A stretch of 64,000 bases of DNA from Thermoplasmatota archaeon (GCA_035526765.1 DATLBS010000016.1:8681-72680), one strand, 5' to 3'. Shown: positions 15,631 through 64,000, numbered from the stretch's first letter. A program made the numbers and translations. The notes: generated by a model from the letters alone, not told the origin.

Positions 15631-16523
15631 CCCCTCGACCCTCCTCCCCCAAGCGCCCCGCGAAGCCTGGCCGGACGGCTGGGGCACCGGCCAAGGCCGC
15701 CGGAGGCAAGGCCGGCAAGGCCGCCCAGGAATCCGTCAAGCGCACGGCCAAGGCGACCGCCAGGCCAGGCGGTGGCGCCAAGGCCGCGAGGGCGCCCCGC
15801 GCCCGCAAGGAGGGGCTGGACGAGGCGGTCATCGCGAAGCTGCTGCCGTACCTGCGCGCCCTTCGGGGCTACACGCGCCTCAAGGCGGACGGCCTCGAGA
15901 ACGTCCCGCGCGGTCCTGCCATCCTGGCCGCCAACCACACGGGCTGGCTGGGTCTCGACTACGCCCTGACCGCCCTCGTGCTGCATGACGAGGCAAAGCG
16001 CACGCCGCGCGGGATGGTGCACTCCGCCTGGTTCGGCAACCCCGTGACGGCCCGCTTCGCGCGCCAAGTGGGGCTCAGCAGGGTCTCCAAGGAATCCATG
16101 GCGCAGGACCTGGCGGACGGGCACCTCGTCATGGTGTTCCCCGAGGGCGAGAAGGGGGCGTTCCGCATCGCCAGCGACTACGAGGTGCTGGAGTTCGCGC
16201 GCGGCTTCGTGCGCGTCGCGATGGCGACCCAGTTGCCGGTCGTCCCGGTGGCCGTGCTGGGCGGGGAGGAGTCGAACCCCGTGGACCGCACCATCAAGGG
16301 TTACGAGGAGATGCTGAAGCTGCAGTTGCCCGTGCCTCGCAACATCCTGCCCAAGCCGGTGAAGTGGCGCATCCGGTTCCTGCCCCCCATCGCCTTCACG
16401 GATTACACGGCCGCCGACGCCGACGACGCGGACCGGGTGCACGCCATCGCGGAGGACGTGCGCACCCGCATCCAGCGCGAGCTGCGCAGGCTGCAGAAGG
16501 AACGCGGGCACCCGTACATCTGA
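15627..16523 (+). CDS. PlsC-family 1-acyl-sn-glycerol-3-phosphate acyltransferase-like protein with a Lys/Ala-rich N-terminal tail
   Basis: ATGA overlap with the upstream gene. NHTGWLGLD (NHxxxxD) and FPEGEKG (FPEG) acyltransferase motifs. N-terminus reads PAKPGRTAGAPAKAAGGKAGKAAQESVKRTAKATARPGGGAKAARAPRARK. Confidence 0.75.
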   Translation: MTPRPSSPKRPAKPGRTAGAPAKAAGGKAGKAAQESVKRTAKATARPGGGAKAARAPRARKEGLDEAVIAKLLPYLRALRGYTRLKADGLENVPRGPAILAANHTGWLGLDYALTALVLHDEAKRTPRGMVHSAWFGNPVTARFARQVGLSRVSKESMAQDLADGHLVMVFPEGEKGAFRIASDYEVLEFARGFVRVAMATQLPVVPVAVLGGEESNPVDRTIKGYEEMLKLQLPVPRNILPKPVKWRIRFLPPIAFTDYTAADADDADRVHAIAEDVRTRIQRELRRLQKERGHPYI

Positions 16524-49501: not shown

Positions 49502-50932
49502 TCACCGTTCCCAGGGCCGCCGCGCCAGCACCAGGTCGGCGACCACCGGCGCCCACTCGTCGGGGACGCTGGCAGGGTCGTCGAGCAGGCGGGAACCCGG
49601 CATGGCGTCCTGCACGTGGCGGCCCAGGGGCAGCCCGGGCAGGTGCGCGGCAAGCCAGGTCGGCGCCGTGCGGTGCCGCACCAGGAGCTCCACCGCGAGC
49701 CTCCCATCCGCGCCCTTGCGGACAGGGCCCGCCGCATCGGGGTGGGTGCTCCACTTGGCGCGGAACCGCTCCACGTTGGGCGCACCCGAATCGGGGGGGC
49801 CGGCATGGACCCGCGTCGGGGGCAGCTCGGCTCCGGAGGCCAGCCACTGCAGCAGGACCTGCTCCTCCCTTGCGTCGGCGGTGGCGGTGGCGCGCCGGAC
49901 CGGGAAGCCTGCAGCCTCCAGGGCCGACTCCACGGTGCGGGCGGCCTTCTGGAACTGCGGGAACACGATGTCGAGGCGGTCCGTCCGGGGGCGCAGCAGC
50001 AGTCCCATCCAGCCTTCGTTCCGTTGCGCAAGGGCGGCGTGGAGGGCGGTGGAGGGCTCGGCGCGCGCGGGGGACGGGTCGAAGAAGCGGGCGTGCGGCG
50101 CGGCGCGGTAGGCGCGGGCGGCATCGAGGGCCTGCGCCAGCGTCGGCTCCTGGACGGCGGCGGCGCAGTTGCGGGCGGGGTCCACGGGGTCGACGACGAC
50201 GAGGCAGGCGACGTCATCGCTGACCTCGTCCGCGCCAAGGGCGATGCGGCGCGGGCGGGCGTCGGCGGCCAGCCAGTCGACGAGGCCCGCGAAGGAGCCG
50301 AAGCGGGCGACGAGGACCTCGACGAGGTAGCCGGAGAAGCCGCCGAGCGCGGTCTGGGCGCCGTAGGCTCCGATGCCCTTCATCCATTTCTTGGCCAGGC
50401 GCACCTCCCCCTCCCGGCCCCCCAGGGCGGCGCGCACCCATGCGGTGTGGAAGGGCGTGCGGTCGACGGCGCTCATCCTGGCGGTGGCGCTTGCGACGCG
50501 GTAGGCGGGGACCAGGTCCACCTGCAGGCCCCGGAACGTGCCGATGAGGTAGGGGTGCTGGGCGTAGCGCTTGTGCGAGCCCGACAGGACACGGGGGCCG
50601 ATGGCGAGGGACACCTGCTCGAGGCGTTCCTGCGGCACGGCGGGGTCGAGGAGGAGGAAGCAGTCCAGGTCTGCTCCGCCGCGCAGCCAGGTGCCCTTCG
50701 CCACGGAGCCCTGCACGCTGGCCTGCCCGGGCACTCCCTCCCTCTGCAGTTCGGCGTCGAGGCGGGCAGCGAGATCGGCGGCCACGCCCTGCAGGGCCTG
50801 CTGCTCCGCCTGTGTGGGGGTGATTCGGTCGAGGACCTGCCGCTCCAGGACGCTCAGGGGCGGGGCCGGGGCGGGACCAGTGGAGCCAGTGGGGCCAGTG
50901 GGGCCGCGGTTCGGAGGGGCCGCCTTCATCAT
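49502..50932 (-). CDS. cca: archaeal class I CCA-adding enzyme (tRNA nucleotidyltransferase)
   Basis: Start MMKAAPP. GSVAKGTWLRGGADLDCFLLL (the Pol-beta NTase GS..G.....D.D motif). About 476 aa. Confidence 0.8.
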   Translation of the reverse strand: MMKAAPPNRGPTGPTGSTGPAPAPPLSVLERQVLDRITPTQAEQQALQGVAADLAARLDAELQREGVPGQASVQGSVAKGTWLRGGADLDCFLLLDPAVPQERLEQVSLAIGPRVLSGSHKRYAQHPYLIGTFRGLQVDLVPAYRVASATARMSAVDRTPFHTAWVRAALGGREGEVRLAKKWMKGIGAYGAQTALGGFSGYLVEVLVARFGSFAGLVDWLAADARPRRIALGADEVSDDVACLVVVDPVDPARNCAAAVQEPTLAQALDAARAYRAAPHARFFDPSPARAEPSTALHAALAQRNEGWMGLLLRPRTDRLDIVFPQFQKAARTVESALEAAGFPVRRATATADAREEQVLLQWLASGAELPPTRVHAGPPDSGAPNVERFRAKWSTHPDAAGPVRKGADGRLAVELLVRHRTAPTWLAAHLPGLPLGRHVQDAMPGSRLLDDPASVPDEWAPVVADLVLARRPWER

Positions 50933-51774
50933 GCCGCACCGCCGAGGGAGAGCTGCGCCTGCGCTGGCCCGGCGGGGCGGTCCGCCATGAGGTGCTCCGC
51001 GCCGGTGGCCTTCACCAGCACCTTGCGCATCAGTTCCTCGGCGGCGGCGCTGCCCAGCAGGGGGTCGTCGCCGGGCAGGGCGTACAGGGGGTCGCGCGGG
51101 GGCACGTCGATGCGGGGGCTTGCCCGTCGGCTGAAGAGGTCGCGGTAGCCGCGGCGGACCGCGTCGCCCACGACGACCTTGTCGAGCCCGGCGGGGACCT
51201 GCGCGAAGCCCGCGTGCTGCAGCTCGGCCTGGAAGACTGGGCGTCCCAGCAGGGTCTGCAGGACGGCCAGGGCCAGGCGGGCGCGCTCCGCCTCGGGACG
51301 CGGGGAGTCCTCGAGGGCACGGTGGACGCGCTGGTGGAGGCTCCAGTGGGCCTCGGGGTTGGCCAGCTTGTATTCCTTGCTGGGCGGGCGGTCGAGCTCG
51401 CGCAGGGTGCCGGCCTCCGCCATCGCCTGCAGGTAGCCAGCCACGGTGAGGCGGTGGATGGGGGCGCGGCGGCCATCGGAGAGGGCGCGCGCGATGCCGG
51501 AGATGGAGTCGTGGTCGTGCTCGCGCAGGTGCTCCACGATGCGGTCGCGCAGGGTGGCCTCGCGCGAGAGCCGGCGAGGGGGCGCGGCCGCGGGCTCGCC
51601 GCGCGCGGACGGCAGGCCCTGGGCGGCGCGGGGCCCTGGCGCTGGGTCGTCGCCGCCTTCTTGACGCGGTGCGGCGGTGACGGCCGGGGGGGACGTTGGG
51701 GAGGCTTGCGGCCCCGGCGTGGGAGACTCCTGGTCCTTCGCGCCCTCCCGCTCCCCCGGCACGCACCTGGTCAC
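50929..51774 (-). CDS. hypothetical protein with a Pro-rich N-terminus and a winged-helix-like segment
   Basis: ATLRDRIVEHLREHDHDSISGIARALSD.... Its stop overlaps the cca start. Confidence 0.4.
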   Translation of the reverse strand: MTRCVPGEREGAKDQESPTPGPQASPTSPPAVTAAPRQEGGDDPAPGPRAAQGLPSARGEPAAAPPRRLSREATLRDRIVEHLREHDHDSISGIARALSDGRRAPIHRLTVAGYLQAMAEAGTLRELDRPPSKEYKLANPEAHWSLHQRVHRALEDSPRPEAERARLALAVLQTLLGRPVFQAELQHAGFAQVPAGLDKVVVGDAVRRGYRDLFSRRASPRIDVPPRDPLYALPGDDPLLGSAAAEELMRKVLVKATGAEHLMADRPAGPAQAQLSLGGAA

Positions 51775-51804
51775 AAAGCTGATGACAATAAGGGTGCCGG
51801 GGCC

Positions 51805-52737
51805 TTAGGTGAAACGGCGAAGGGGGCCGGTGGGGCCGAAGAGGTAGCGGAAGGGGGAGCCCATGACGTGCTGGAAGCGTTTGAACGCGGTCGCGAACTC
51901 GCCGCGGAACTCGTCGGCCATCGTGGCGCCGAGGAGGCCGACGAGGAGGCCCCCCGGGATGTCGGTGATCCAGTGGATGCCGAGGTAGAGGATGCTGAAG
52001 GCGAACAGGGCCGTGTTGGCGATGAGGAACCAGAGGAAGCCGCGGTGCTCCCAGTCCCGCAGGGTGTAGCCGCGCCGCTTCATGGCCCACCAGGCCACGC
52101 ACACGAGCCCGAAGGGGATCGCGATGTGCAGGCTGGGGAAGGCGTTGTCGAGGGGGTCGTGGGCGAGGAAGAAGCTGTGCCAGCCTGGGCCGGCATTGTA
52201 GAGGAGGCTGCGGACGCCGGGCACGTAGCGGCTGGTCACCTGGACGTTGAAGAAGATGTAGAACGGCACCGCCAGGAGGTAGATGATGGAGTACGTGAGG
52301 GCCGCGAGGTCGGCCAGCTCCTTGTCGTCGCGGTACGCCCACAGCATGACCGCGAAGTAGGTCAGGAAGACGTAGACCCAAAGGTAGTGGACGTTCAGGA
52401 CGGCCGTGAGCGCGGGGGTCTCCAGCGCGTGCTGGATGTGGTAGACGGCGGGGCCCTCCATCTTCCAGATGAGCCAGGTCTTGTCCCCGAAGACGCCGCG
52501 CACCCGGTCGTTGAGGCTGTCCACCCAGCCCTTCTCGACGACGATGACGGCGAACAGCAGGAAGTTCCACGTGTAGTCCGTGGCCAGGCGCACCATGTTC
52601 GACCAGATGCTGCCCGCCCAGCGCCGCCGCTCGAACCACCAGATGGCCAGCGGCGTCGTGGCCAGCACCGACCAGATGGTCACCGTCCCGAGCGAGACCG
52701 CCACGGCCGCCGAGGCTTCCCTCCTGTAGATAAACAA
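51805..52737 (-). CDS. PAP2-superfamily membrane phosphatase/phosphotransferase (Aur1/sphingomyelin-synthase-like)
   Basis: 6 TM helices. FPSLHIAIPF (PSGH-like) and LGIHWITDIPGG (the H...D motif). Confidence 0.6.
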   Translation of the reverse strand: MFIYRREASAAVAVSLGTVTIWSVLATTPLAIWWFERRRWAGSIWSNMVRLATDYTWNFLLFAVIVVEKGWVDSLNDRVRGVFGDKTWLIWKMEGPAVYHIQHALETPALTAVLNVHYLWVYVFLTYFAVMLWAYRDDKELADLAALTYSIIYLLAVPFYIFFNVQVTSRYVPGVRSLLYNAGPGWHSFFLAHDPLDNAFPSLHIAIPFGLVCVAWWAMKRRGYTLRDWEHRGFLWFLIANTALFAFSILYLGIHWITDIPGGLLVGLLGATMADEFRGEFATAFKRFQHVMGSPFRYLFGPTGPLRRFT

Positions 52738-52834
52738 ACTCGTCTCCTGATAAGGGGCTTATAGCCCTCTTTTGAGGCGCTCATAGACCCTTAAATACTT
52801 CATTTTCTTGGCGAGAGTGCCCGGAAGGACCCTC

Positions 52835-53383
52835 ATGGCTGTCATCCACATCCAGAACGTCGTCGCCAGCACCTCCATCGGCGAGGAGCTCGACCTGAAC
52901 GCCATCAGCGCCACGTTCAGCAATGCCGAGTACGAGCCCGAGCAGTTCCCCGGCCTCGTCTTCCGCGTGCCCGAGCCGAAGACGGCAGCGCTCATCTTCC
53001 GCAGTGGCAAGGTCGTCTGCACCGGCGCCAAGTCCATCGAGGAGGTCCACACGGCCGTCGGCATCGTGTGCGACCAGCTGCGCGCCAACGGGTTCGAGAC
53101 CATCGACGACCCCGAGATCACGATCCAGAACATCGTCGCCACCAGCGACCTGGGCGCCGAGCTGAACCTCAACGCCATCGCGATCGGCCTCGGCCTGGAG
53201 AACGTCGAGTACGAGCCCGAGCAGTTCCCCGGCCTCGTCTACCGCCTCACCGACCCCAAGGTGGTCGTCCTCATCTTCGGCTCCGGCAAGCTTGTGTGCA
53301 CGGGCGCCCGCAAGAAGGAAGACGCCGAAGAGGCAGTGGACAAGATCACGGCCGAGCTCAGCTCCCTGGGCCTGCTGTTCTAG
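52835..53383 (+). CDS. tbp: TATA-box binding protein
   Basis: Two direct repeats: [37 protein letters not shown]... and [39 protein letters not shown].... Confidence 0.9.
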
Positions 53384-53893: not shown

Positions 53894-54739
53894 ATGCGCC
53901 GCCTCCTTGCCCTCGGCCTCCTCCTCGTCTTCGCCCTCCCCGCGCAAGCGGCCTCTGCCCCCGTCGCCCCGGTCGTCCCCGTCCTCGCCGAGGTCCAGGC
54001 CGCCGACACCGACCTCAACCTGCCCATCCAAGGCTTCAACGCCTTCGTGGGGTACTACGATGCCAACGTCAACGGCCGCTTCGACGGCGTGGCTCCCGAC
54101 GAGCCCGCCTACCTGGACCTGGACGCCTCCCGCAGCGCCACGTACGCTGACCTGCGGCTGTCGCCCTTCGGAGGCCTGCCCGCGGGTGTCCCCGTCCAGG
54201 TCGGGGACATCGACGTGGGGCGCGCCCTGCTGACCCCCGTCAACGCGTGGTTCATGCGCGCCCCCGATGGCGCCTGGGTGCTGGACATGGACGGCAGCAT
54301 GACGCTCTCGGTCGCCGACATCACGTTCCCCTCTGGCGTCCCGACGAAGGTGGCCGCTGGCGCCGCGGGCCTCGGCACGAAGGTGGTGCGCGTGGAGGGG
54401 TCGCAGCCGGGCACCGTCTCCGCTGCCCGCCGGGACCATGGCCTCGCTGACCCTGTCTACATCGAGATGGATGCCTCCACCAGCGGCATTGGCCGAGTGA
54501 CCCTGGGCGACCTGCGCATCACGCCGCAGCCTTCCTTCACCGACCAGCGCCTTGCCGGCACCCCCGACCCTGTGGTGGACACCGCGGCGGGCGAGGCGCA
54601 GGGCTCCTCCGGCCCTTCCGCGTGGCGCGCCCTCGACTGGCTGGTGGTCGGCCTCGTCGTGCTGAACCTCGTGGGGCTCATCGCGATCACCCGCCGCCTG
54701 AACCAGCTCAAGCTGCCGCCCAAGAACCCCTTCAAGTGA
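53894..54739 (+). CDS. secreted protein with a signal peptide and a C-terminal TM anchor, hypothetical
   Basis: MRRLLALGLLLVFALPAQA | ASAP.... C-terminus ...WLVVGLVVLNLVGLIAITRRLNQLKLPPKNPFK. Confidence 0.55.
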   Translation: MRRLLALGLLLVFALPAQAASAPVAPVVPVLAEVQAADTDLNLPIQGFNAFVGYYDANVNGRFDGVAPDEPAYLDLDASRSATYADLRLSPFGGLPAGVPVQVGDIDVGRALLTPVNAWFMRAPDGAWVLDMDGSMTLSVADITFPSGVPTKVAAGAAGLGTKVVRVEGSQPGTVSAARRDHGLADPVYIEMDASTSGIGRVTLGDLRITPQPSFTDQRLAGTPDPVVDTAAGEAQGSSGPSAWRALDWLVVGLVVLNLVGLIAITRRLNQLKLPPKNPFK

Positions 54740-54942
54740 ACGCTGCGGCCATCGGCCGGGCAAGACGGTCCGGCCACCGCGACCACGCCGCCTAGCCGGG
54801 GAGCGGCGCCAAGGAGCCGTCACGGGGCAGCCGGCGACGCTCGATCCAGCTCCACGCCGCCAGGAGGCGGGCCCGCAGCGATGGGAGAGCGCAGAGCCAG
54901 CGACGTCCAGGGGGGAAGGAGCAGGAGGGGGTCGGGCACGGC

Positions 54943-56685
54943 TCAGGCCTCGGTGAAGGCGGGGCTGGTCGCCGTGGCTCCCGTCGTGGACGTGGCGCGG
55001 AACACCAGGTGGGTCCCCGCGGGCACGGACATGCTCTTGGCGTAGGTCCCCCACGAGTCCTTCGGGAGCGCGGTCCAGGCGCCGCCGTCTAGGCGGACCT
55101 CGACCTTGGCGATGGCCTGGCCGGAGGAGACCGCGGTCTCGACCCACCAGTGGTTGGTGAGGGTCTTGGGCGTGAACGTCGCCGCGAACGTCGCCGGCGA
55201 TGGGGCCGTCGAGGTGGTGGACGTCGGCGTCGGGCTCGACGTGGCCGTGCCCGTGGACACGAGCCAGGCCATGGGCGGAGACATGGCGGTGCGGCCGTCC
55301 ACGTCCTTGGCGGTGGCGAGGACCGTGGAGCCCTTGGGGGCGCTGAAACTGGCCGCCCACGTGCCCCACGACGTCTTCGCAAGCGCGTGTGGCGACCCGC
55401 CGTTGACGGTGGCGGACACGCTGGCCACGGTGGCGCTGGCCGTCACCTTGAGGTCCACCCACCACGCGTTGGAGCCCGATGCGGGCGCGAACGTGGCCGT
55501 GAAGGCCGCGGCGGGGGCCGGGGCCGGGGCGGACCCGTACGCCAGGGCGCGGTCGGCGCGCACCAGGCCGGCGCCGGAAGCGGTGTCGCGGCCGGCAGGG
55601 CCGACGTCCTGCGCGGTCGCCTCGAGGGCCTGCCGCACCTGCACGTTCGTGTAGGTGGGGTGCGCGTTCCACACGAGGGCCGCGGCGCCGGAGACGTGCG
55701 GGGCGCTAAGCGAGGTGCCGCCGCCGTAGAGGTAGGCGTTGTTGGCGCCGTGCCCCGTCGTGTAGATGTTCGAGCCGGGTGCAGCGAGGTCGACCTGCAG
55801 GCCCTTGCTGGTCGTGCTGCAAGTGGCCAAGGCCTGGTCGATGCAGCCCACGGCGATGACGTTGCTGTAAGCGGCGGGGTACAGGACGCAGTCCGCGCAT
55901 CCGCCGTTGCCGGCCGCGGCCACCAGGAGAAGGCCCTTGCCCCACGCGTAGTCGACGGCGCTCTGCACGGCGGAGCTCGGGGTGGGGCCCCCCACCGACA
56001 TGGAGACGATGCGGGCGCCGTTGTCGGCGCACCAGCGGATGCCCATCGCGATGTCGGAGTCGTAGCCCTGGCCCTGCGAATCCAGGACCTTGACCTCCTT
56101 GAGGGGGGCGTTCGCGATGCCGGCGACCCCGAGGCCGTTGTTGATCGTCGCGACCGCGACGCCGGCGGTGCGGGTGCCATGGCCGCCGTCGTCCCAGGGG
56201 TCGCTGTCGAAGTTGACGAGGTCGGTGCCGCCCACGTAGCGGGCCTTCAGGTCCTCATGCGTGTAGCGGACACCGGTGTCCAGCATGCAGACCGTGGCCG
56301 CAGGGCCGCCAAGCGAGGTGCTCCAGGCGGCGGGCGCGCCGATGGCCTGGGGCGCGTACTGCTTGCCGAAGCCGGGGTCGGTCGGCGTGAGCCCGAGGGC
56401 GTGCGAGACCCCATCCGCCTCGATGGAGCGGACGCCGCTGCGCCCGTGTACGTGTTCCTTGAACGCCTTGCCGTGCGGGGCCTGCACGACGGCGAAGCCC
56501 AGGGCCTCGTCGATGGCGAGGACATCAGCGCCCTCGTAGTCGCCGTGCGGCTGGAGGCCGGGAGGCATCCGGTCGAAGTGGACGACGAGGCGCTGGGGCG
56601 GGTCGTCGGCTGCGGGGGCGGCGGCCGCGACGCCGGTGCCCAGGAGGGCGGCGACGAGGATGCAGGTGGTCAGGAGGATCTTCAT
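54943..56685 (-). CDS. secreted subtilisin-like serine protease (S8) with two C-terminal WWVE-type beta-sandwich modules
   Basis: Signal peptide MKILLTTCILVAALLGTGVAAAAP. Catalytic triad context D (MLDTGV), H (HGTRTAG), S (GTSLSAPH). Two roughly 90-aa repeats: FTATFAPASGSNAWWVDLKV...VNGGSPHAL...WGTWAASF and FAATFTPKTLTNHWWVETAV...LDGGAWTAL..WGTYAKSM. Confidence 0.85.
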   Translation of the reverse strand: MKILLTTCILVAALLGTGVAAAAPAADDPPQRLVVHFDRMPPGLQPHGDYEGADVLAIDEALGFAVVQAPHGKAFKEHVHGRSGVRSIEADGVSHALGLTPTDPGFGKQYAPQAIGAPAAWSTSLGGPAATVCMLDTGVRYTHEDLKARYVGGTDLVNFDSDPWDDGGHGTRTAGVAVATINNGLGVAGIANAPLKEVKVLDSQGQGYDSDIAMGIRWCADNGARIVSMSVGGPTPSSAVQSAVDYAWGKGLLLVAAAGNGGCADCVLYPAAYSNVIAVGCIDQALATCSTTSKGLQVDLAAPGSNIYTTGHGANNAYLYGGGTSLSAPHVSGAAALVWNAHPTYTNVQVRQALEATAQDVGPAGRDTASGAGLVRADRALAYGSAPAPAPAAAFTATFAPASGSNAWWVDLKVTASATVASVSATVNGGSPHALAKTSWGTWAASFSAPKGSTVLATAKDVDGRTAMSPPMAWLVSTGTATSSPTPTSTTSTAPSPATFAATFTPKTLTNHWWVETAVSSGQAIAKVEVRLDGGAWTALPKDSWGTYAKSMSVPAGTHLVFRATSTTGATATSPAFTEA

Positions 56686-56739
56686 GAGGGTCACGTGGGC
56701 GGTCTTGGGCGGGCCGGAGGCGCTCCGGAGCGGGCGCGG

Positions 56740-56879
56740 GGGCGCCAAGGGGGTAGGCGAAGTCGGAGAGGAAGGGGAAGAGGGCGGAGAGGCGGAGAGG
56801 AGGGAGGATAGGCGAAAGGAGGGGGGCTGGAGGAAGAGGACGGAAGGAGATGGAGGAGGGGAGAAGATGTGCGGCGCGC
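56740..56879 (-). terminator. long pyrimidine-rich tract on the minus strand downstream of the glycoside hydrolase gene
   Basis: Plus strand reads gagaggaaggggaagagggcggagaggcggagaggagggaggataggcgaaaggaggggggctggaggaagagg. Its complement is C/T-rich. Confidence 0.35.
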
Positions 56880-58517
56880 CTACGTCCAGGTGTAGGTCGT
56901 GCTGGTGGCGGTCTGGCCCGTGCTGGCGGTGGCCACGAAGACCACCTTGCTGTTGTTGGGCGCGTTCAGGCTCTTGGCGTACGTGCCCCAGGAGTCCTTC
57001 GGCAGGTCCACGAGGGACCCGCCGTTGATGCGGACCTGGACCTTCGTGACGGCCTTGTTGGCCGTGACGCCGGTCTCGACCCACCAGTCGTTGCCCAGCG
57101 ACTTGGGCGAGAACGAGGCCGTGAAGGCCGTCGTCGTGCTGCTGGCGGAGGTGCTGGTGGCGGGGGCCGCGGTGCCCGTGCTGGTGGCGGTGGTGCCGGA
57201 GGTGCCGGTCACGGTCGCGTACGAGACCATCCAGGCCACCTTGGGCGACACGGCCGCATGGCCGGTCGTGTCCTTGGCCGTGAAGACGACCATGGACCCC
57301 TTGGGGGCGCTGAAGCTGGCCGCGTACGTGCCGTACGAGGTCTTGCCCAGGGCGTGTGCGCTGCCGCCGTTGACGGTGGCGGAGACCCCCGAGAGGGCGT
57401 GGTTGCCGGTGACCTTGGCCTCGACCCACCAGGCGTTGGCGCTGGAGGTCGGGGTGAACGACGCCGTGAAGACGGTCGCGGAGGTCGTCGTGGACGTCGT
57501 GGCGGGCGGCGAGGTCGTCGTGCTGGAGGCACGCTCGGCCTTCACGCCGGCGATCCACACCAGCGCGGCGGGCTTCTGGATGCCAGTGGTCTTGCTGGCC
57601 AGGCCCCAGTAGCGCTCCGCCATGCCGTAGTAGTTGGCGAGGTCCATCGTGGGCGAGTCGTACCAGGAGCGGTAGATCATCGCCTGCACGCCGAGGGCCT
57701 TCAGGTCCTGCATGTGGCTGAAGAACTTCGCGAGGGCGTCCTTCTGCATCGTGAGGTACGTGGGCTCCGGGTAGCTCGAGAGCGCGATGTCGGTGAGGAC
57801 GATCGGCTTGTTGAACAGCGTCTTGAGCTTCTGGACGCCGGCCAGCGTGCTGTCGTACAGGTTGCTGTAGGCGGTGCCCGTCTCGTGGGTGGAGCCACGC
57901 ATCCCCTGCAGGCCGGTGAAGTCGCTCTTGGCGGCGATGCGGTCGAAGTTGTGCCAGTTCTCGCTGCCCCAGTTGCCGAAGGCCAGGACGACCTTCGCGT
58001 TGGGGTACCGGGAGTGGATGTAGTCGGCCATGTCGGCCATGTAGCCGTCGAACGGCTCGTAGGTCGAGATGCCACCCTTGTTGAACTCCGACTCCAGGAA
58101 CACCATGACGGGCTTGCCGCCCATCTTGGAGTTCATGTGGTCCGTCATCTGCTGCGCCAGCTGCTTCCAGTGGGCGCGGTCCTTCTGTGCGTTGTGGAGG
58201 CTGCTCCAGCAGCCGTTCTCGACGCAGGAGGGGGTGATGTCGTCGCCCCAGTAGTAGAAGTGGATCGCGGGCGTGACGCCGGCGTTGTTCATGTTGGTGA
58301 GCTGGGTGTCCGCGGAGCCCCAGCCGGAGCTGAGGGTCCAGGGGCCGATCCAGAAGGTGCCGTAGTCGGCCTTGACGCCGGCCGAGGCCTGGGCCGCCAT
58401 CGAGGACGACTCCATGCCGAAGGCCATGCGCCCGGGGGTGGTTGTTGCGGACGCTGCCAGGGGCAGGGCCCCCAGCAGCAGCCCGAGGCTCATCAGTCCG
58501 ATCAGGGTGCGTTTCAT
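56880..58517 (-). CDS. secreted glycoside hydrolase (TIM-barrel, clan GH-A-like) with two C-terminal WWVE-type modules
   Basis: Signal peptide MKRTLIGLMSLGLLLGALPLAASA. VMVFLESEFN and AFGNWGSENW resemble the acid/base and nucleophile regions of GH5/GH26-type enzymes. A Thr/Ser linker leads to FTASFTPTSSANAWWVEAKV... and FTASFSPKSLGNDWWVETGV.... Confidence 0.7.
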   Translation of the reverse strand: MKRTLIGLMSLGLLLGALPLAASATTTPGRMAFGMESSSMAAQASAGVKADYGTFWIGPWTLSSGWGSADTQLTNMNNAGVTPAIHFYYWGDDITPSCVENGCWSSLHNAQKDRAHWKQLAQQMTDHMNSKMGGKPVMVFLESEFNKGGISTYEPFDGYMADMADYIHSRYPNAKVVLAFGNWGSENWHNFDRIAAKSDFTGLQGMRGSTHETGTAYSNLYDSTLAGVQKLKTLFNKPIVLTDIALSSYPEPTYLTMQKDALAKFFSHMQDLKALGVQAMIYRSWYDSPTMDLANYYGMAERYWGLASKTTGIQKPAALVWIAGVKAERASSTTTSPPATTSTTTSATVFTASFTPTSSANAWWVEAKVTGNHALSGVSATVNGGSAHALGKTSYGTYAASFSAPKGSMVVFTAKDTTGHAAVSPKVAWMVSYATVTGTSGTTATSTGTAAPATSTSASSTTTAFTASFSPKSLGNDWWVETGVTANKAVTKVQVRINGGSLVDLPKDSWGTYAKSLNAPNNSKVVFVATASTGQTATSTTYTWT

Positions 58518-58886
58518 GGTCAGGTTCCGGGGCGCGTTTCCCGATGCAGAAGCACCAAGGTTGTCCGCGCCCGACCTGCCTTCCTCCCCCCCGTCCGACT
58601 TAATCGACCATCGTAGCCCTTATTGGGGACAACGGACCCGCGGGAATTCCCATATCAGTGTTCCCCCTCGCCGCGCCTGCCTCCCTTCTTATATAGCGCC
58701 CAGGGACGGAGCGCTGGTGTCCATCCCAGCGGGTCTGCATCTCCCGGAACGCCCCCCGCAGCAAGCCCACAGACGCTGAAGCCACGCACCCTTTTCCGGT
58801 CCAGACCAGCCGGAGCCCCCGGGGTGCCGCACTGACATCTGCGGGCCCTGCCCACCCCTGAAGCCTCAAGTAGTCCGTGGACGAAG

Positions 58887-59699
58887 GTGGAGTGGTCCCC
58901 ATCCGGGGGCACGGAGCTGGTCCACATCAAAGACAAGGTCCTCATCGTCGACGACGAACCCGATGTCCTGGAGAGCACGGCCCTCCTCGTGGAGGCCCTG
59001 GGCTACCAGGCCATCCGCCTGTCGGACCCCGCCGAGATCCTCGAGACCGTCGAGCAGGAGCAGCCCGGCATCCTGCTGCAGGACCTCAAGATGCCCGGCC
59101 TCAACGTGGCCGGCCTTGTCGCCGCCCTACGGCTGAACCCCCTCACAGCGGAGGTCCCATTGGTCTTCTTCAGCGCCGGCGGCGACCTGCCAACGACCGC
59201 GGCCCGCTATGACGCGTGGGGCTACCTCGCCAAGCCCTTCGGGAAGGAGGAGCTCGCCCGCCTGCTCAACCAGGTCCTCGGGGCTCCCGCCAAGCGCACC
59301 GGACCCTGGCAGGGCCGCGACATGCAGCGCGAGGTCCGCAGCGTCTTCCACGACTACTGGAACCTGCTGGCCGCCCTCAGCAACTACATCCTCATCCTCG
59401 ACCGCGCCAAGGGCCTGAGCGCCGAGGCCCAGAAGTCGGTGCGCGGACTCGACGAGATCATCCTCAAGCTCGAGTCGAAGACCGACCGCCTCAGCGCCTA
59501 CATCATGGCCCTCGTCGGCAGCATCGAGCCCGTCCCCGTCGCCCAGACGGCGACGCAGGCCCGCGGCGGCCGCTCCGGCGGCTCCGAGGGCGGCGACACC
59601 GGCCGCGCGTCCGGCCCCGGCCGCTCCGGCGGCACGGGCGGCAGCGGCTCGGGCCGTGTGTCCGGGCCTGGCAAGGACGACAACACGCCCACGGCGTGA
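58887..59699 (+). CDS. response regulator receiver protein with an uncharacterised C-terminal region and a Gly/Ser/Arg-rich tail (non-ATG start per track)
   Basis: KVLIVDDEPDVLE...ILLQDLKMPGLNG...LVFFSAGGD...GYLAKPF. C-terminal tail RGGRSGGSEGGDTGRASGPGRSGGTGGSGSG. Confidence 0.7.
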   Translation: MEWSPSGGTELVHIKDKVLIVDDEPDVLESTALLVEALGYQAIRLSDPAEILETVEQEQPGILLQDLKMPGLNVAGLVAALRLNPLTAEVPLVFFSAGGDLPTTAARYDAWGYLAKPFGKEELARLLNQVLGAPAKRTGPWQGRDMQREVRSVFHDYWNLLAALSNYILILDRAKGLSAEAQKSVRGLDEIILKLESKTDRLSAYIMALVGSIEPVPVAQTATQARGGRSGGSEGGDTGRASGPGRSGGTGGSGSGRVSGPGKDDNTPTA

Positions 59700-59745
59700 C
59701 ACACCTCCTTCCTTCCCTCTCTCCTTCCTTCTCCCGTTCCCTTTT
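59700..59745 (+). terminator. pyrimidine-rich tract after the response regulator gene
   Basis: cacctccttccttccctctctccttccttctcccgttcccttttctgtgg. Confidence 0.4.
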
Positions 59746-60349
59746 CTGTGGCCTCAAGTCGCCAAATCCTTCTCGTCGTCACGGCCATGTTCACGGACCG
59801 GTGACCGATCTGTACTGCACCCTTCGCCTCGGTGCCATGGCTTCCGGCACGGCCATCAGGTACGCGACGTCCCGAACGACGAACCACCGTTCCAGCTAGG
59901 ACGCCCTGTTGCCACTGCGATGTGCCGGAACAAGGGCCGGCCAAGCCACCGAGTGACCCTTTGGGACGCGGCAGCACTGCGGTTGCCAAGAAGGAGACGC
60001 AGCGGCAACCCTTGATGGCCGATGCCAGGGCTGGATTCCAAGACCTGCGCAACGCGCTGGAACCCGCTGGTCCAAGTTCATAGAGGGCGATGCCAGGCAC
60101 GTCCACGGATGCTTGATGCGGACTGGGGGCTGGCAGGTGGCGAAGCGGAGCCCTGATTCCTCGCGGATGCCGCGGAACACGCGGAGATCCCCATCTCCTG
60201 GGGCGAAGGTTCCCCATCGAGAGGTCTCCGTTCTCCGCGCCCGCCGCGTGCAAGGTCGACAGGCGCGCCTGCGCCGCCCGCTGGCAATGCACAAGAGGTG
60301 ATGGCCGGGGGGGGGGGGCGGGGCCCCAGGCAACGGGTCCATCGCAGCG

Positions 60350-60410
60350 ATGGAACGCAAAAAAGGACGCGAAGAAGGAAGGGGGGAAGGGAGGAGGGAT
60401 GCTCGCTGGC
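60350..60410 (-). terminator. pyrimidine-rich tract (minus strand) after the FG-GAP gene; inverted counterpart of the 59700 tract
   Basis: Plus strand reads cgcaaaaaaggacgcgaagaaggaaggggggaagggaggaggg, so the complement is T/C-rich. Confidence 0.4.
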
Positions 60411-62570
60411 CTACGGCCAGGTCGTCGTGCCCGAGGTCGCGACGGAGCCCGTCGTCGAGGTGGCCCGGAACTGGACCTGCGCGCCATGGTCCACGTGCAT
60501 GGACTTGGCCCACGTGCCCCAGTCGGTCTTGGCGAGGGCGATCCAGCTGCCGCCGTTGACGCGGGCATCGACGGAGCCCACCGGCTCGCCGTTGGAGGTC
60601 ACTGTGACCTCGACCCACCACTCGTTGATGTTCTTCGACACCGTGAAGGTGGGCGAGAAGCCCGAGGGCGGGCTCGTCGTCGTGCCGCTGGTGGTGGTCG
60701 ACGTCGTGGTCGTCGTGCTGCTGGTGGTGGTGGTCGTGCCGCCGCCCGGGCAGGTGACCAGGGTCGCGTCCGTGTTGGAGGGCGGGATCCACTGCCTGCA
60801 CGAGCTCAGGTCCGCGCTGCCGGCGGTGCCGGTGGCGCGCATCTGGACGATGGTGCCCTGCGTGATGTGGTACGAGGCGGCCCAGCCTCCCCAGGACTGC
60901 TTGGTCAGGGGCTGGAACGGTCCCCAGGCCCCGTTGTAGAGGCGGACCTCGACCTTGGCCAGGGGCTCGCCGTTGGTGGCCACGTTGGCCTGCACCCACC
61001 ACTCGTTGCCGCGGAAGGCCGTGAAGGTGGCGTCGAAGGCACCGGAGGGCGGGGGCGGGGGCGGGGGCGGCGGCGGAGGCGGGGGCGGCGGGGGCGTGCC
61101 CTGGCCACCGGTCAGCGTGGGGTAGGGCAGGTGCGGGTACACGGAGTTGTAGGCCACGTGCGTGTCGAAGACCAGGACGCCGCCGCCGCTGACGGTGGAG
61201 TCGCCGGCGCCGACCTCGACGACCCACTGCATGGTGCCGGTGCCCCAGAGGTCCGCGAGGATGGGGGCGCGGCTGACCTTCCAGTGCGTGGTCGGCACGA
61301 AGGCCTCCTTGGCGCCGGTGCGGGAGTCGAGGTACCAGATGCCGTCGCCGCCGGTGCCGGGGCCGTTGGCAAGGACTTCCTGGACGCCGTCGCCGTCGAC
61401 GTCGCCGAGGGTGAGGTCCTTGTTGCTCCAGTACGTGTTCAGGCTCTGCTTCCAGACCAGGTTGCCCTGGCCGTCGTAGCGGTAGAAGTTGCCAGGCCCG
61501 GTGACGTCCCAGTCGTACTGGGGGTCGATGCCGCCCTTGTGGCCGATCGTGTTCCAGTCGGCCCAGTAGATCTCGTTGCGGCCGTCGTGGTCGGCGTCCA
61601 CGATGACGGGGTGCGTGTAGGTCAGCGGATTGCCGCCGTTGACGTCCTGCTTGGCCCAGAGCACGGAGCCGCCCGTGCTGAAGGCGATCAGCAGCGCGTG
61701 GTCGTTCTCGAAGTTCGTGGTGTCGTGCGAGTCGCGGGCGCCGACGATGAAGTCGAGGCCGCCGGAGCCATCGATCTGGCCGATGGCGCCGCCGACGGGC
61801 ATGGCGCCCGACCGGAGGTTGTAGTGAGCGGTGACCGAGTAGCTCCAGCGGGTGGCGCCGGTGCGGCCGTTGAGCTGTGTGACGACGCCGCCGTCGGAGT
61901 TGAACATGACCTCGGGGTAGCCGTCACCGTCCATGTCGCCGGGCACCATCTCGGTGTTGCCGCCACCGATGCACTTCTTCCAGTACAGGCTGCCGTCCTG
62001 GCGCAGGGCGTAGAGGCCGGACTCCTCGGTGCTGCCAAGGATCTCGTAGCGGCCGTCGCGGTCGAGGTCGACCAGGACGGGCTTGGAGTCGGAGCCGGGG
62101 TTGGAGTAGCAGTCGCTGAGGCGGCGCTCCCATTCCTTGACGAAGGAGAAGTGGCCGGTGGTGCTGCCTCCGGGGTTGAAGCGGTACGAGGTGACGTAGG
62201 CGGCCGAGTTCTGGAGGACGATGCGGACGGTGCCGGCGGAGTCGAACACCGCGGCCTCGGGTCCGTTGAAGGTGCGGGCGCCCCAGCTGGAGGGGAACGT
62301 CGTCTTGAGCTCCGCCAGGATGGCGCCCGTCTTGGAGTCGAAGACGTACGCGTACTGGTTGTCGTTCTGGGCGATGATCTCCTTCCGGCCGTCGCCGTTG
62401 AAGTCGAAGACCTTGGGGGGGTTGCCGTCGAAGTTGCGGAACGGCACGGTGGGGTGCGCCGTGTTGGTCCAGATCGTGAGGGATTGGGTGGTTGCGGCCT
62501 CGGCGCCTCCCAGCATGGCGACGAACACCAGCGGGAGCACGAAGAGGGCGGTTGCTGCAAGCGCCTTCAT
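60411..62570 (-). CDS. secreted FG-GAP/VCBS-repeat beta-propeller protein with a poly-Pro linker and two C-terminal WWVE-type modules
   Basis: Signal peptide MKALAATALFVLPLVFVAMLGGAEA. Repeated FG-GAP Ca-binding loops (FDFNGDGRKEII, VDLDRDGRYEIL, GDMDGDGYPEVM, VDADHDGRNEIY, GDVDGDGVQEVL). P16 linker, then FDATFTAFRGNEWWVQANV... and FSPTFTVSKNINEWWVEVTV.... Confidence 0.8.
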   Translation of the reverse strand: MKALAATALFVLPLVFVAMLGGAEAATTQSLTIWTNTAHPTVPFRNFDGNPPKVFDFNGDGRKEIIAQNDNQYAYVFDSKTGAILAELKTTFPSSWGARTFNGPEAAVFDSAGTVRIVLQNSAAYVTSYRFNPGGSTTGHFSFVKEWERRLSDCYSNPGSDSKPVLVDLDRDGRYEILGSTEESGLYALRQDGSLYWKKCIGGGNTEMVPGDMDGDGYPEVMFNSDGGVVTQLNGRTGATRWSYSVTAHYNLRSGAMPVGGAIGQIDGSGGLDFIVGARDSHDTTNFENDHALLIAFSTGGSVLWAKQDVNGGNPLTYTHPVIVDADHDGRNEIYWADWNTIGHKGGIDPQYDWDVTGPGNFYRYDGQGNLVWKQSLNTYWSNKDLTLGDVDGDGVQEVLANGPGTGGDGIWYLDSRTGAKEAFVPTTHWKVSRAPILADLWGTGTMQWVVEVGAGDSTVSGGGVLVFDTHVAYNSVYPHLPYPTLTGGQGTPPPPPPPPPPPPPPPPSGAFDATFTAFRGNEWWVQANVATNGEPLAKVEVRLYNGAWGPFQPLTKQSWGGWAASYHITQGTIVQMRATGTAGSADLSSCRQWIPPSNTDATLVTCPGGGTTTTTSSTTTTTSTTTSGTTTSPPSGFSPTFTVSKNINEWWVEVTVTSNGEPVGSVDARVNGGSWIALAKTDWGTWAKSMHVDHGAQVQFRATSTTGSVATSGTTTWP

Positions 62571-62924
62571 GGCCGATGGCTCCGTCCCCACGTGCATAAG
62601 GCCGCAGGGACACGTTGGCGGTCCAACAGAAGGGGCCGCACATCTACGGAGGCGCCCGGCCATCGATGCCGGGGTTTGCCGGACAGTCGCGAGCCAGAGC
62701 CTGACCGCATCGCCACGCAACAAGGAACCGCGTGTGGCACGGCCGGCCCGTGGCGCCAGGCCACTCGCCCGGCAGGCCCCGGAAAGCCAGGCCCTGGGCC
62801 CTGAGGCCAGTTGTCGTACGCCTCTCGCGGCCGTCGCCGCGCCTCCGGGAATCCGCCTTGCGTCAGGCCCAGGAGGCCGGCTCGCCGCAGGTTGGACCGG
62901 AAAAGGGGAAGGTGGCGAGGCGCC

Positions 62925-64000
62925 TCAGTGGGCCCGCAGGGCGGAGGCCGAGCCCGGCCATGGCGCATCGTAGGCGGCATCCAGGTCGAACACGAGGAGG
63001 GCCCCCTTGCGGGAGCCGTCCAGGGGCTCGACGGGGAAGACCAACTGCATCTTGCCGTCATGCCGCAGCTCGTGCAGCACGGGCCCGCGGCTCATCTTCC
63101 AGTCCTCCAGGGGCAGGAACGCCTCGGCGGAGCCGGTGGCGGCGGAGAGCCGCCAGATGCCGTCGTAGCCGCCGCCGGGGCCGTTGGCGAGGATGGAGTA
63201 GGAGCCGTCGCCGTCCAGGTCCACGACCGCGATGTCCCGGTTGCTCCACCAGGCGTCGATCTCGCGCACCCAGACGTCGTTGCCGGCGTCGTCGAGGCGG
63301 AAGGCGTGCGCCGGGCCCAGCCGCTCCCAGTTGCCGGGGCGGTGGCCGATCGTGTTCCAGTCCATCCCGAAGATGTCCATGCGGCCGTCGCCGTCCACGT
63401 CGACGACCGCCAGCTGGGTGTAGCTCAGCGGGTTCGCCCACTGGGGCTGGCGCATCCACACCAGCTCGCCCTGGCCGCCCGCGCCGCCATGGATGGCGAA
63501 GACCGCCATGTGGTCGTTGGCGAAGGTATCCGGTTGCCCCGGTGGCGCGTACCGCGCCACGTAGAGGATCTCCTTCTGGCCCTGGCCGTCGAGGTCCGCC
63601 ACGGTGACCTGGGTGGGGATGGCGGCCGGCGTGATCCCGGCGGAGCGCGAGTCGTACGTCCACCGGGTCGCGCCAGTCTTGGCATCGAGCACGGCGACGA
63701 CGCCGTTGTCGCCGGCCACGATGGCCTCGGCATGCCCGTCGCCGTCCAGGTCGGCCACGGCGGGGGCCCCGTTGCCTCCTGTCCAGCACTGCTTCCACTG
63801 CGTGGCGCCGTCGGCGCGCAGGCCGAAGGAGCCGCCGTCCTCCGTCTGCACGATGATGAGCTTCTCGCCGCCGCCGACGTCGGCGATGGAGGCCTTGGCG
63901 TCCATGCCGGGGCTGCGCACGCATTCCGTCATGCGGCGCTCGAAGGTCTTCGTGAACTCGAAGTGGTCCTCCGTGCTCTTGGCGGCGTCGTAGCGCCACG
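62925..64000 (-). CDS. paralogous FG-GAP-repeat protein; the 5' part extends beyond the window end and it lacks the C-terminal modules
   Basis: The frame stays open to the window edge (…HFEFTKTFERRMTECVRSPG…) and parallels the HFSFVKEWERRLSDCYSNPG region of 60411..62570. Contains ADLDGDGHAEAIV, VDVDGDGRMDIF and VDLDGDGSYSIL. Confidence 0.7.
   Translation of the reverse strand, partial: WRYDAAKSTEDHFEFTKTFERRMTECVRSPGMDAKASIADVGGGEKLIIVQTEDGGSFGLRADGATQWKQCWTGGNGAPAVADLDGDGHAEAIVAGDNGVVAVLDAKTGATRWTYDSRSAGITPAAIPTQVTVADLDGQGQKEILYVARYAPPGQPDTFANDHMAVFAIHGGAGGQGELVWMRQPQWANPLSYTQLAVVDVDGDGRMDIFGMDWNTIGHRPGNWERLGPAHAFRLDDAGNDVWVREIDAWWSNRDIAVVDLDGDGSYSILANGPGGGYDGIWRLSAATGSAEAFLPLEDWKMSRGPVLHELRHDGKMQLVFPVEPLDGSRKGALLVFDLDAAYDAPWPGSASALRAH

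Follow-up and report, generated by a model that had tools for sequence, protein, structure and literature searches.

What could a protease, a glycosidase-like protein and a beta-propeller from a single archaeon have in common that would lead all three to end in the same repeated domain? The genes in question lie at the end of the 64,000-nucleotide stretch of DNA analysed here (hereafter the window), for which a sequence-only reading had proposed an archaeal source. This origin was corroborated by the identity of the GH-like protein with NCBI VM286_05385 from a Candidatus Thermoplasmatota archaeon metagenome-assembled genome (MAG), and by relatives that are also archaeal. The locus contains the following features:

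54943..56685, minus strand: S8 subtilase, secreted, 580 aa, with two C-terminal CBM63-like modules (Peptidase_S8)
54946..55197, minus strand: S8 module M2, aa 497-580, extreme C-terminus (HMM 127.9 bits)
55255..55512, minus strand: S8 module M1, aa 392-477 (HMM 119.6 bits)
56880..58517, minus strand: GH-like protein, secreted, 545 aa, with a clan GH-A-fold domain and two modules
56883..57134, minus strand: GH-like module M2, aa 462-545, extreme C-terminus (HMM 126.7 bits)
57222..57479, minus strand: GH-like module M1, aa 347-432 (HMM 125.4 bits)
57483..58517, minus strand: GH-like (beta/alpha)8-barrel domain, aa 1-345 with the signal peptide included
58887..59699, plus strand: response regulator, REC domain and an uncharacterised C-terminal part (Response_reg, E 1.1e-16)
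60411..62570, minus strand: FG-GAP beta-propeller protein, secreted, 719 aa, with two modules (FG-GAP_3)
60414..60668, minus strand: FG-GAP module M2, aa 635-719, extreme C-terminus (HMM 125.0 bits)
60777..61046, minus strand: FG-GAP module M1, aa 509-598 (HMM 118.9 bits)
61047..61094, minus strand: poly-Pro(16) linker before FG-GAP M1 (coordinates from aa 493-508)
62925..64000, minus strand: FG-GAP paralog without modules, cut by the window end (FG-GAP_3, E 1.1e-14)

Inspection of the sequences revealed hydrophobic, signal-peptide-like N-termini on the S8, GH-like and FG-GAP proteins alike (MKILLTTCILVAALLGTGVAAAAP in the subtilase). The Peptidase_S8 domain of the subtilase spans aa 129-373 (E 2.6e-53, 181.7 bits compared to a cut-off of 21.8). 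In the FG-GAP protein, six stretches matched FG-GAP_3 above its cut-off (E 4e-14, 53.4 bits) and Beta-prop_CGLA matched with an E-value of 1.6e-10; a PDB sequence search returned zero relatives, and the description of this propeller as adhesin-like found no support. The neighbouring paralog is indeed devoid of modules, a profile search having found none in 62925..64000. It matches residues 177-529 of its orthologue in locus L009 up to window base 63998, and about 175 of its N-terminal residues lie beyond the window end. Base composition showed no sign of a foreign-island origin of the locus.

The catalytic domain of the GH-like protein is predicted to fold as a (beta/alpha)8 barrel of the clan GH-A type, yet, unlike clan GH-A families such as GH26, GH5, GH10, GH1 and GH53, it matched no sequence family in Pfam, NCBIfam or PDB. 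Clan GH-A enzymes carry an Asn-Glu acid/base pair where strand 4 ends and a Glu nucleophile where strand 7 ends. In the GH-like domain, strand 4 bears E-S-E-F-N instead of N-E, with E142, E144 and N146 invariant, while strand 7 contains an invariant D243 and no invariant Glu; E301, located after strand 8, is also invariant.

The sequence-only reading had described a tandem module shared by the protease, the glycosidase-like protein and the propeller. Profile searches recovered all six copies where they had been proposed, each of about 85 aa, with pairwise identities ranging from 34 to 64%, and found no further copy in the 64,000-nt window. GH-like M1 is 64% identical to S8 M1, and GH-like M2 is 52% identical to S8 M2. 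Leave-one-out E-values were 1.5e-24 for S8 M1 and 5.3e-12 for FG-GAP M1. The linkers reported earlier are also present, as Thr/Ser/Pro-rich stretches and as a Pro run ahead of FG-GAP M1 whose longest uninterrupted length is exactly 16.

The module had been likened, as an impression, to expansin domain 2 (D2, CBM63). The NCBIfam model expansin_EXLX1 matched FG-GAP M2 (E 8.1e-10, model positions 107-176 of 194) and S8 M2 (E 1.3e-6, positions 106-176), both matches being confined to the D2 part of the model. Pfam Expansin_C (PF01357) matched FG-GAP M2 with an E-value of 7.7e-4; the best copies of the window scored 20.0 and 17.0 bits, the latter for S8 M2, below the gathering threshold of 24.6 bits. 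Among 70 diverse copies of the module, 23 matched Expansin_C at E <= 0.01 (best 4.5e-7), and the only other Pfam families found, DUF4249 and Big_7, were marginal (2 members each, E > 0.005). Expansin_C was also matched at E <= 1e-5 by 17 of 150 relatives (best 6.5e-15), some of which exceed the Pfam threshold, for instance with 29.0 and 32.4 bits. When a profile of the 70 copies was searched against PDB, the top seven hits were exclusively expansin D2 and Phl p 2 (4jcw, E 1.5e-4), and hhalign aligned the module with four canonical D2 domains over 68 columns (95.9% probability, P 5.2e-9). The AF2 model of S8 M1 (pLDDT 84) is an Ig-like beta-sandwich, and the predicted module fold is of the expansin D2 type; all of the top eight Foldseek hits of the module model belong to the expansin D2 family. 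A word-indexed protein search gave no match with a single module as query and just 15 short fragments with the 70-copy alignment. An Ig domain of a biofilm-associated protein (7dm0, E 0.002 with a six-copy profile) was no longer retrieved with the 70-copy profile and was therefore judged a chance Ig-like match. Five independent methods (Pfam, NCBIfam, the PDB profile search, hhalign and Foldseek) thus bear out the initial impression and support the view that the module is a divergent homologue of expansin D2 (Pfam Expansin_C, CAZy CBM63).

In BsEXLX1, residues W125, W126 and Y157 stack on cellohexaose, and expansin D2, which resembles type-A CBMs, binds to Avicel (PMC5072189, PMC11040781). Alignment with hmmalign placed these three residues at module positions 17, 18 and 50, which fall in the W-W and S-W-G motifs and are aromatic in 95%, 98% and 94% of 521 copies, respectively. 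By homology, they would form an exposed aromatic strip on the module surface. The module could thus be pictured as a stand-alone Ig-like beta-sandwich, in which the W-W pair and the W/Y of the S-W-G motif would stack onto sugar rings of an insoluble, flat-surfaced glycan. The modules might alternatively be inert Ig-like spacers in the manner of PKD or Big domains, serving to extend the catalytic domains. We consider this very improbable: the D2 ligand-platform residues are 94-98% conserved, sequence homology specifically links the modules with a family of carbohydrate-binding domains and not with PKD/Big, and an extreme C-terminal location does not serve spacing. The earlier concern that the module might prove to be a common, already named domain was justified insofar as it belongs to a named family, but it represents a divergent and narrowly distributed branch whose use is undescribed, and not a generic PKD/Big spacer.

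The other half of an expansin is missing. Searches for the N-terminal, GH45-like DPBB domain (D1) returned zero matches in the three window proteins and in the 150 relatives, and the best score against EXLX1, 38.3 bits, falls short of the full-model cut-off of 100 bits. According to published surveys, D1 and D2 are both kept in every microbial expansin, less than 1% of which carry an extra domain (PMC11040781), and CAZy sets CBM63 apart from enzyme-borne CBMs partly for its different role (PMC5072189). CBM63 has been regarded as the part of expansins responsible for binding. The module family is small, with 435 clusters among 1.84 billion, and all its named members come from archaeal MAGs except for one partial protein labelled Egibacteraceae. 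Our literature searches turned up no account of expansin-family proteins in this archaeal lineage. We propose that the domain split from expansin D1 in uncultured Thermoplasmatota-type archaea, where tandem multiplication and shuffling have spread it, behind flexible Thr/Ser/Pro linkers, over many Sec-secreted proteins.

Proteins of the family contain one to seven tandem copies. The last module coincides with the protein end in 200 of 253 module proteins, and the first module adjoins the N-terminal signal peptide in 89 of the 253. A beta-sandwich that ends unrelated secreted proteins is the pattern of the type IX secretion system (T9SS) C-terminal domain, a sorting signal of Bacteroidota, and the shared domain could by this token be a sorting or secretion signal, or else a dockerin-like plug for a scaffold. 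Both the tandem copies, up to seven, and the modules found next to the signal peptide depart from the single-copy, strictly C-terminal arrangement of a T9SS sorting domain. Moreover, the modules yielded zero matches to dockerin or C-terminal-domain families, the conserved locus lacks a scaffold or cohesin-like partner, and the homology points to a CBM, making this explanation highly unlikely. The dockerin/cohesin analogy drawn earlier likewise found no support, as neither a signature nor a partner was found: in a Pfam search no module matched Dockerin_1, whose only weak match (E 0.0037) corresponds to an FG-GAP Ca-loop of the module-less paralog.

We therefore favor, with a probability of roughly 0.6, a reading in which a divergent expansin-D2 CBM, present in tandem, tethers exported enzymes to insoluble polysaccharide. 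All three module-bearing proteins of the locus would be exported and held, by the avidity of at least two module copies, on a polysaccharide in particle form, for instance a cellulose-like polymer or another crystalline component of cell walls. Enzymes so held would consequently act on the polymer or particle rather than diffuse away.

The partners of the module, which comprise glycosidases, esterases, proteases, phosphatases, lysyl oxidase and propellers, bear on what that anchorage might be. Carbohydrate-related domains co-occurring with it are CBM60, CE2 esterase and GH-like domains, and PKD is found as well. The non-carbohydrate partners include S8 and M10 proteases, metallophosphatases, a phosphoesterase, a dual-specificity phosphatase and lysyl oxidase, in proteins taken to be archaeal by family membership only. 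This mix fits a general immobilisation, possibly on the producer's own cell surface, at least as well as it fits targeting to a polysaccharide substrate. The same domain, with the same chemistry, might then recognize the archaeon's own envelope, through S-layer glycans or extracellular polysaccharide, and act as a cell-surface anchor for carbon-, nitrogen- and phosphorus-scavenging exoenzymes, by analogy with SLH or cell-wall-binding domains. Proteases, phosphatases and lysyl oxidase have non-polysaccharide substrates, and another C-terminal anchor is absent from most module proteins, namely the 200 that end with a module. Furthermore, BsEXLX1 binds the peptidoglycan of its producer avidly, and a review suggests that it may be located on the cell (PMC5072189). 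Since the co-occurrence of CBM60, CE2 and GH-like domains points instead to external plant or microbial polymers, and the conserved W-W/Y strip is a cellulose-type platform, we regard anchoring to the envelope as possible but rather unlikely.

The response regulator noted within the island proved to be a member of a locus that is syntenic across MAGs. We identified at least 30 loci by scanning genomes with one alignment through one peptide pattern, a procedure that makes this number a lower bound and the set pattern-biased. Orthologues of the response regulator are 51-78% identical. Its gene is divergent from the GH-like gene, which it adjoins on the opposite strand in six loci (L001, L002, L011, L019, L025 and L027); in L009 it lies beside the S8 gene, and the GH-like gene was not detected there. 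The module-less FG-GAP gene precedes the module-bearing one in nine loci. Across loci, only short AT-rich, TATA-like blocks align in the region between the response regulator and GH-like genes, and this alignment revealed no convincing operator motif. On a broader and more speculative reading, which we hold to be unlikely, a CBM63-type tether would be common to the entire set of carbon-, nitrogen- and phosphorus-scavenging exoenzymes of these archaea, keeping them on the glycan coat of the producing cell or on the cell-wall remains of other microbes. The response regulator, the new GH-A-fold family, the two FG-GAP proteins and the S8 protease would then together form the archaeal equivalent of a polysaccharide-utilisation locus, and CBM63 would be an old autonomous module recruited by expansins rather than an expansin-specific part.

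Should tethering by the D2-like modules hold true, D2 would behave in hundreds of secreted proteins like any other CBM, shuffled between hosts and repeated in tandem, a finding that bears on the origin of expansins. It would also provide a functional handle for the many secreted proteins annotated as "hypothetical" in uncultured Thermoplasmatota from soil and groundwater, and suggest a polymer-attached lifestyle for these archaea. The locus stands out as conserved and probably regulated, with a GH-A-fold domain of no sequence family, and the module itself is a candidate small binding tag for enzyme immobilisation.

The closest known relatives are the D2 domains of expansins (BsEXLX1/YoaJ 2bh0, Clavibacter 4jcw, fungal EXLX1 7wvr), which resemble the module in sequence, Ig-like sandwich, length of about 85 aa and W-W...Y/W aromatic platform. 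The module differs from them in having no preceding DPBB D1, in its one to seven tandem copies, in its many kinds of catalytic partners, in its named members from archaeal MAGs and in the position of most copies under the Pfam threshold. The grass group-2/3 pollen allergens Phl p 2 and Phl p 3 are D2-only members of the same family; the module profile matched Phl p 2 (E 0.015) and Foldseek also found grass-allergen structures, but these are single-domain plant proteins without enzyme fusion. Type-A CBM-tagged sets of cellulolytic bacteria (CBM2 and CBM3, borne by cellulases, xylanases and other enzymes) likewise reuse a module with planar aromatics through Pro/Thr/Ser linkers; their CBM families are unrelated, however, and the archaeal tagged set adds proteases, phosphatases, lysyl oxidase and propellers. 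Finally, the dockerin-cohesin cellulosome also marks a diverse enzyme set with a common C-terminal module, but the archaeal modules lack its Ca-binding dockerin repeat, the search for a cohesin scaffold found none, and the module is a homologue of a CBM rather than of an adaptor between proteins.

Three genes of the window code for otherwise unrelated proteins that each end in two copies, M1 and M2, of the same module; they are listed here together with a module-less neighbour:

54943-56685, minus strand: S8 subtilase gene with modules (Peptidase_S8, E = 2.6e-53)
56880-58517, minus strand: glycosidase-like (GH-like) gene with modules, without family match
60411-62570, minus strand: FG-GAP propeller gene with modules (FG-GAP_3, E = 4e-14)
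62925-64000, minus strand: second FG-GAP gene, module-less, extending beyond the window end

Alignment of the six copies revealed 17 invariant columns and pairwise identities of 34-64%, and leave-one-protein-out HMMs, each built from two of the proteins, detected the module pair of the protein left out (E = 5e-12 to 2e-28, with database size set nominally to one million), thereby bearing out the claim of the sequence-only reading that two terminal modules of ~85 aa are common to these three proteins. All three share a layout consisting of a signal-peptide-like N-terminus, a main domain of their own, low-complexity linkers and the two terminal modules. The linkers were also as had been described, with a poly-Pro run of exactly 16 residues and the others rich in Thr, Ser and Pro. 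Scanning the six translated frames of the full 64 kb detected no seventh copy, and confirmed that the second FG-GAP paralog lacks modules.

Pfam searches with single window copies always returned Expansin_C (PF01357), below threshold (20.0 and 17.0 bits compared to a cut-off of 24.6), while the NCBIfam EXLX1 model matched M2 of the FG-GAP protein (E = 8.1e-10) and M2 of the S8 protein (E = 1.3e-6), in both cases only over model positions ~106-176 of 194, which correspond to expansin domain 2 (D2). Relatives supplied 521 full-length copies, of which we aligned 70 that were less than 55% identical. Expansin_C was matched singly by 23 of these 70 diverse copies at E ≤ 0.01 (best 4.5e-7), other Pfam matches being marginal (DUF4249 and Big_7, n = 2 each, E > 0.005). 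The seven best matches of the 70-copy profile among all PDB sequences were all either expansin D2 domains or Phl p 2, an allergen consisting of D2 only (E-values: 4jcw, 1.5e-4; 7wvr, 9.8e-4; 9ms5, 4.8e-3; Phl p 2, 0.015; YoaJ, 0.096), and hhalign aligned the 70 copies with four canonical D2 domains over 68 of ~77 columns (95.9% probability, P = 5.2e-9). Since the Pfam, NCBIfam, PDB-profile and hhalign results concur, the module is, as judged by sequence, a divergent homologue of expansin D2/CBM63, and the initial impression of such a relationship was correct.

To locate putative binding residues, we aligned BsEXLX1 (YoaJ; sequence identical to PDB 2bh0) to the module HMM. BsEXLX1 W125 and W126 aligned with the W-W pair of the module and Y157 with the W/Y of its S-W-G motif; aromatic residues occupy the three equivalent positions in 95%, 98% and 94% of the 521 archaeal copies, respectively. 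In BsEXLX1, W125, W126 and Y157 form a linear aromatic row making CH-pi contacts to cellohexaose, and its D2 binds Avicel in the manner of a type-A CBM (PMC5072189, PMC11040781). Since D2 is homologous, the aromatic triad of the module is probably surface-exposed as well. Both this conserved aromatic strip and the specific D2/CBM63 homology speak against the modules being inert spacers, an explanation that we disfavour. Our preferred reading, which we hold at a probability of about 0.6, is that the host enzymes would be exported and then retained on an insoluble glycan by their tandem type-A-like CBM63 modules.

Searching 1.84 billion representative proteins exhaustively with a profile yielded 435 matches at E ≤ 1e-3 and 209 at E ≤ 1e-30, making this a small, sharply bounded family distinct from canonical expansins, which are far more numerous. 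All but one of the organism labels obtained were archaeal MAGs (Thermoplasmatota, Thermoplasmata, 'Methanobacteriota' and 'uncultured Halobacteriales' of 59-74% G+C); the exception was one partial protein labelled Egibacteraceae bacterium, and the genome scan for module loci, resting on a single peptide pattern, is no proof of absence from bacteria. Proteins carry 1-7 modules, the last of which forms the C-terminus in 200 of 253 module proteins, while a module directly follows the signal peptide in 89 of the 253. This N-terminal placement, together with the tandem arrangement and the fact that no partner was found, speaks against a sorting signal or dockerin-like adaptor, which we also disfavour. 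A DPBB domain (expansin D1) was found neither in the three proteins of the window nor in any of the 150 best members of the family.

Partner domains of the module among the 150 best family members (counts)
Two-repeat ~170-aa domain without family match, downstream of N-terminal modules: 39
FG-GAP propellers: ~30
GH-like barrel: 17
PKD: 10
SBBP propellers: 10
Peptidase_S8: 5
Metallophosphatase: 5
CBM60: 4
Lysyl oxidase: 2
M10 metalloprotease: 2
DUF7948: 2 by Pfam (12 in the BLAST cluster of relative P0160, DUF7948 + PQQ_2)
Phosphoesterase: 1
CE2+GDSL esterase: 1
DUF4015/GHL10: 1
Dual-specificity phosphatase: 1

Tagged proteases, phosphatases and lysyl oxidase would be better accounted for if the same binding chemistry were directed at the cell's own glycan coat, echoing the avid binding of BsEXLX1 to the peptidoglycan of its producer (PMC5072189); we regard this main rival of our preferred reading as rather unlikely. 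Proteins of the most frequent partner class (39 of the 150; for example P0168, P0135 and P0203) have 3-4 N-terminal modules followed by two ~170-aa repeats, each opening with AWPREGS and closing with DTDAPL.

In homologues of the GH-like protein, the module alternates with PKD and CBM60. The GH-like domain (57483-58517, minus strand) has a confidently predicted clan GH-A barrel fold, has no match among Pfam, NCBIfam and PDB sequence families, and has more than 180 homologues, mostly archaeal. E142, E144 and N146 on strand 4 (motif E-S-E-F-N), D243 on strand 7 and E301 are invariant, whereas neither the N-E pair nor the strand-7 Glu canonical for clan GH-A is apparent, strand 7 bearing an Asp. 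The domain is a candidate new GH family of the GH-A fold, set apart by Pfam, NCBIfam and PDB only.

M1 of the S8 protein is 64% identical to M1 of the GH-like protein, and their M2 copies are 52% identical, whereas M1 and M2 inside one protein share less (39-50%), indicating that the M1-M2 pair was transferred as one cassette. By sequence, the modules form subtypes that follow their position in the protein. At position 53, Tyr replaces Trp far more often in C-terminal-most modules (88 of ~187) than in the others (46 of ~334) among the 521 copies.

Further features of the region are:

49502-53383: housekeeping genes at the left boundary (CCA-adding enzyme, PAP2 membrane protein, TATA-binding protein)
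53894-54739, plus strand: ORF coding for 281 aa, at the start of the island as first delimited
58887-59699, plus strand: response regulator gene, 51-78% identical across loci

The proposed island is a conserved chromosomal locus and not a compositionally foreign insert, since its gene set recurs in related loci; G+C is ~70% across the whole window. The window is archaeal, given the TATA-binding protein (E = 1.6e-65), PAP2 protein and CCA-adding enzyme immediately left of the locus. Long ORFs listed on both strands at 49502-53383 are mostly high-GC artefacts. The product of 53894-54739 has a signal-peptide-like N-terminus and a hydrophobic C-terminal helix, with no family match, no module and no recurrence in related loci.

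At least two module-bearing genes are adjacent in 13 of 30 related loci, and the S8 gene with modules accompanies the conserved set in L001, L002 and L009. In six MAG loci (L001, L002, L011, L019, L025 and L027), the response regulator gene neighbours the GH-like gene, lying on the other strand in divergent orientation; in L009 it lies beside the S8 gene, no GH-like gene being detected there. It is more conserved than the adjacent enzymes (as much as 78% identity across its full length, ~82% in REC), and its C-terminal ~130 aa have no family match. The intergenic region common to the loci contains merely short AT-rich, TATA-like blocks. The response regulator gene is separated from the 3′ terminus of the FG-GAP gene by a ~700-bp gap (59700-60410) without a convincing ORF, which holds a run of ~12 G near 60305-60320 and in which Rfam and ARAGORN found nothing. 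Elsewhere, ARAGORN called a 98-nt tRNA-Leu(CAG) (16256-16353, minus strand), absent from the Rfam gathering search, that may be intron-containing or a false call. In nine related loci, the module-less FG-GAP paralog is without exception the immediate upstream neighbour of its module-bearing counterpart, which suggests that the two propellers work as a functional pair. Both match the lambda-carrageenase propeller family in Pfam and so might be enzymes rather than adhesins.

The domain family itself is already known, and automated annotation labels a small number of relatives PF01357 or 'expansin'. Our literature search found no paper linking expansin/CBM63 modules to Thermoplasmatota, and none describing an enzyme-borne CBM63 lacking D1. 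We rate the module as a variant of the known expansin D2/CBM63 family, the variant itself being new. In surveys, microbial expansins always retain D1 and D2 together (PMC11040781), whereas the archaeal proteins, in the window as in 150 relatives, carry the module without D1.
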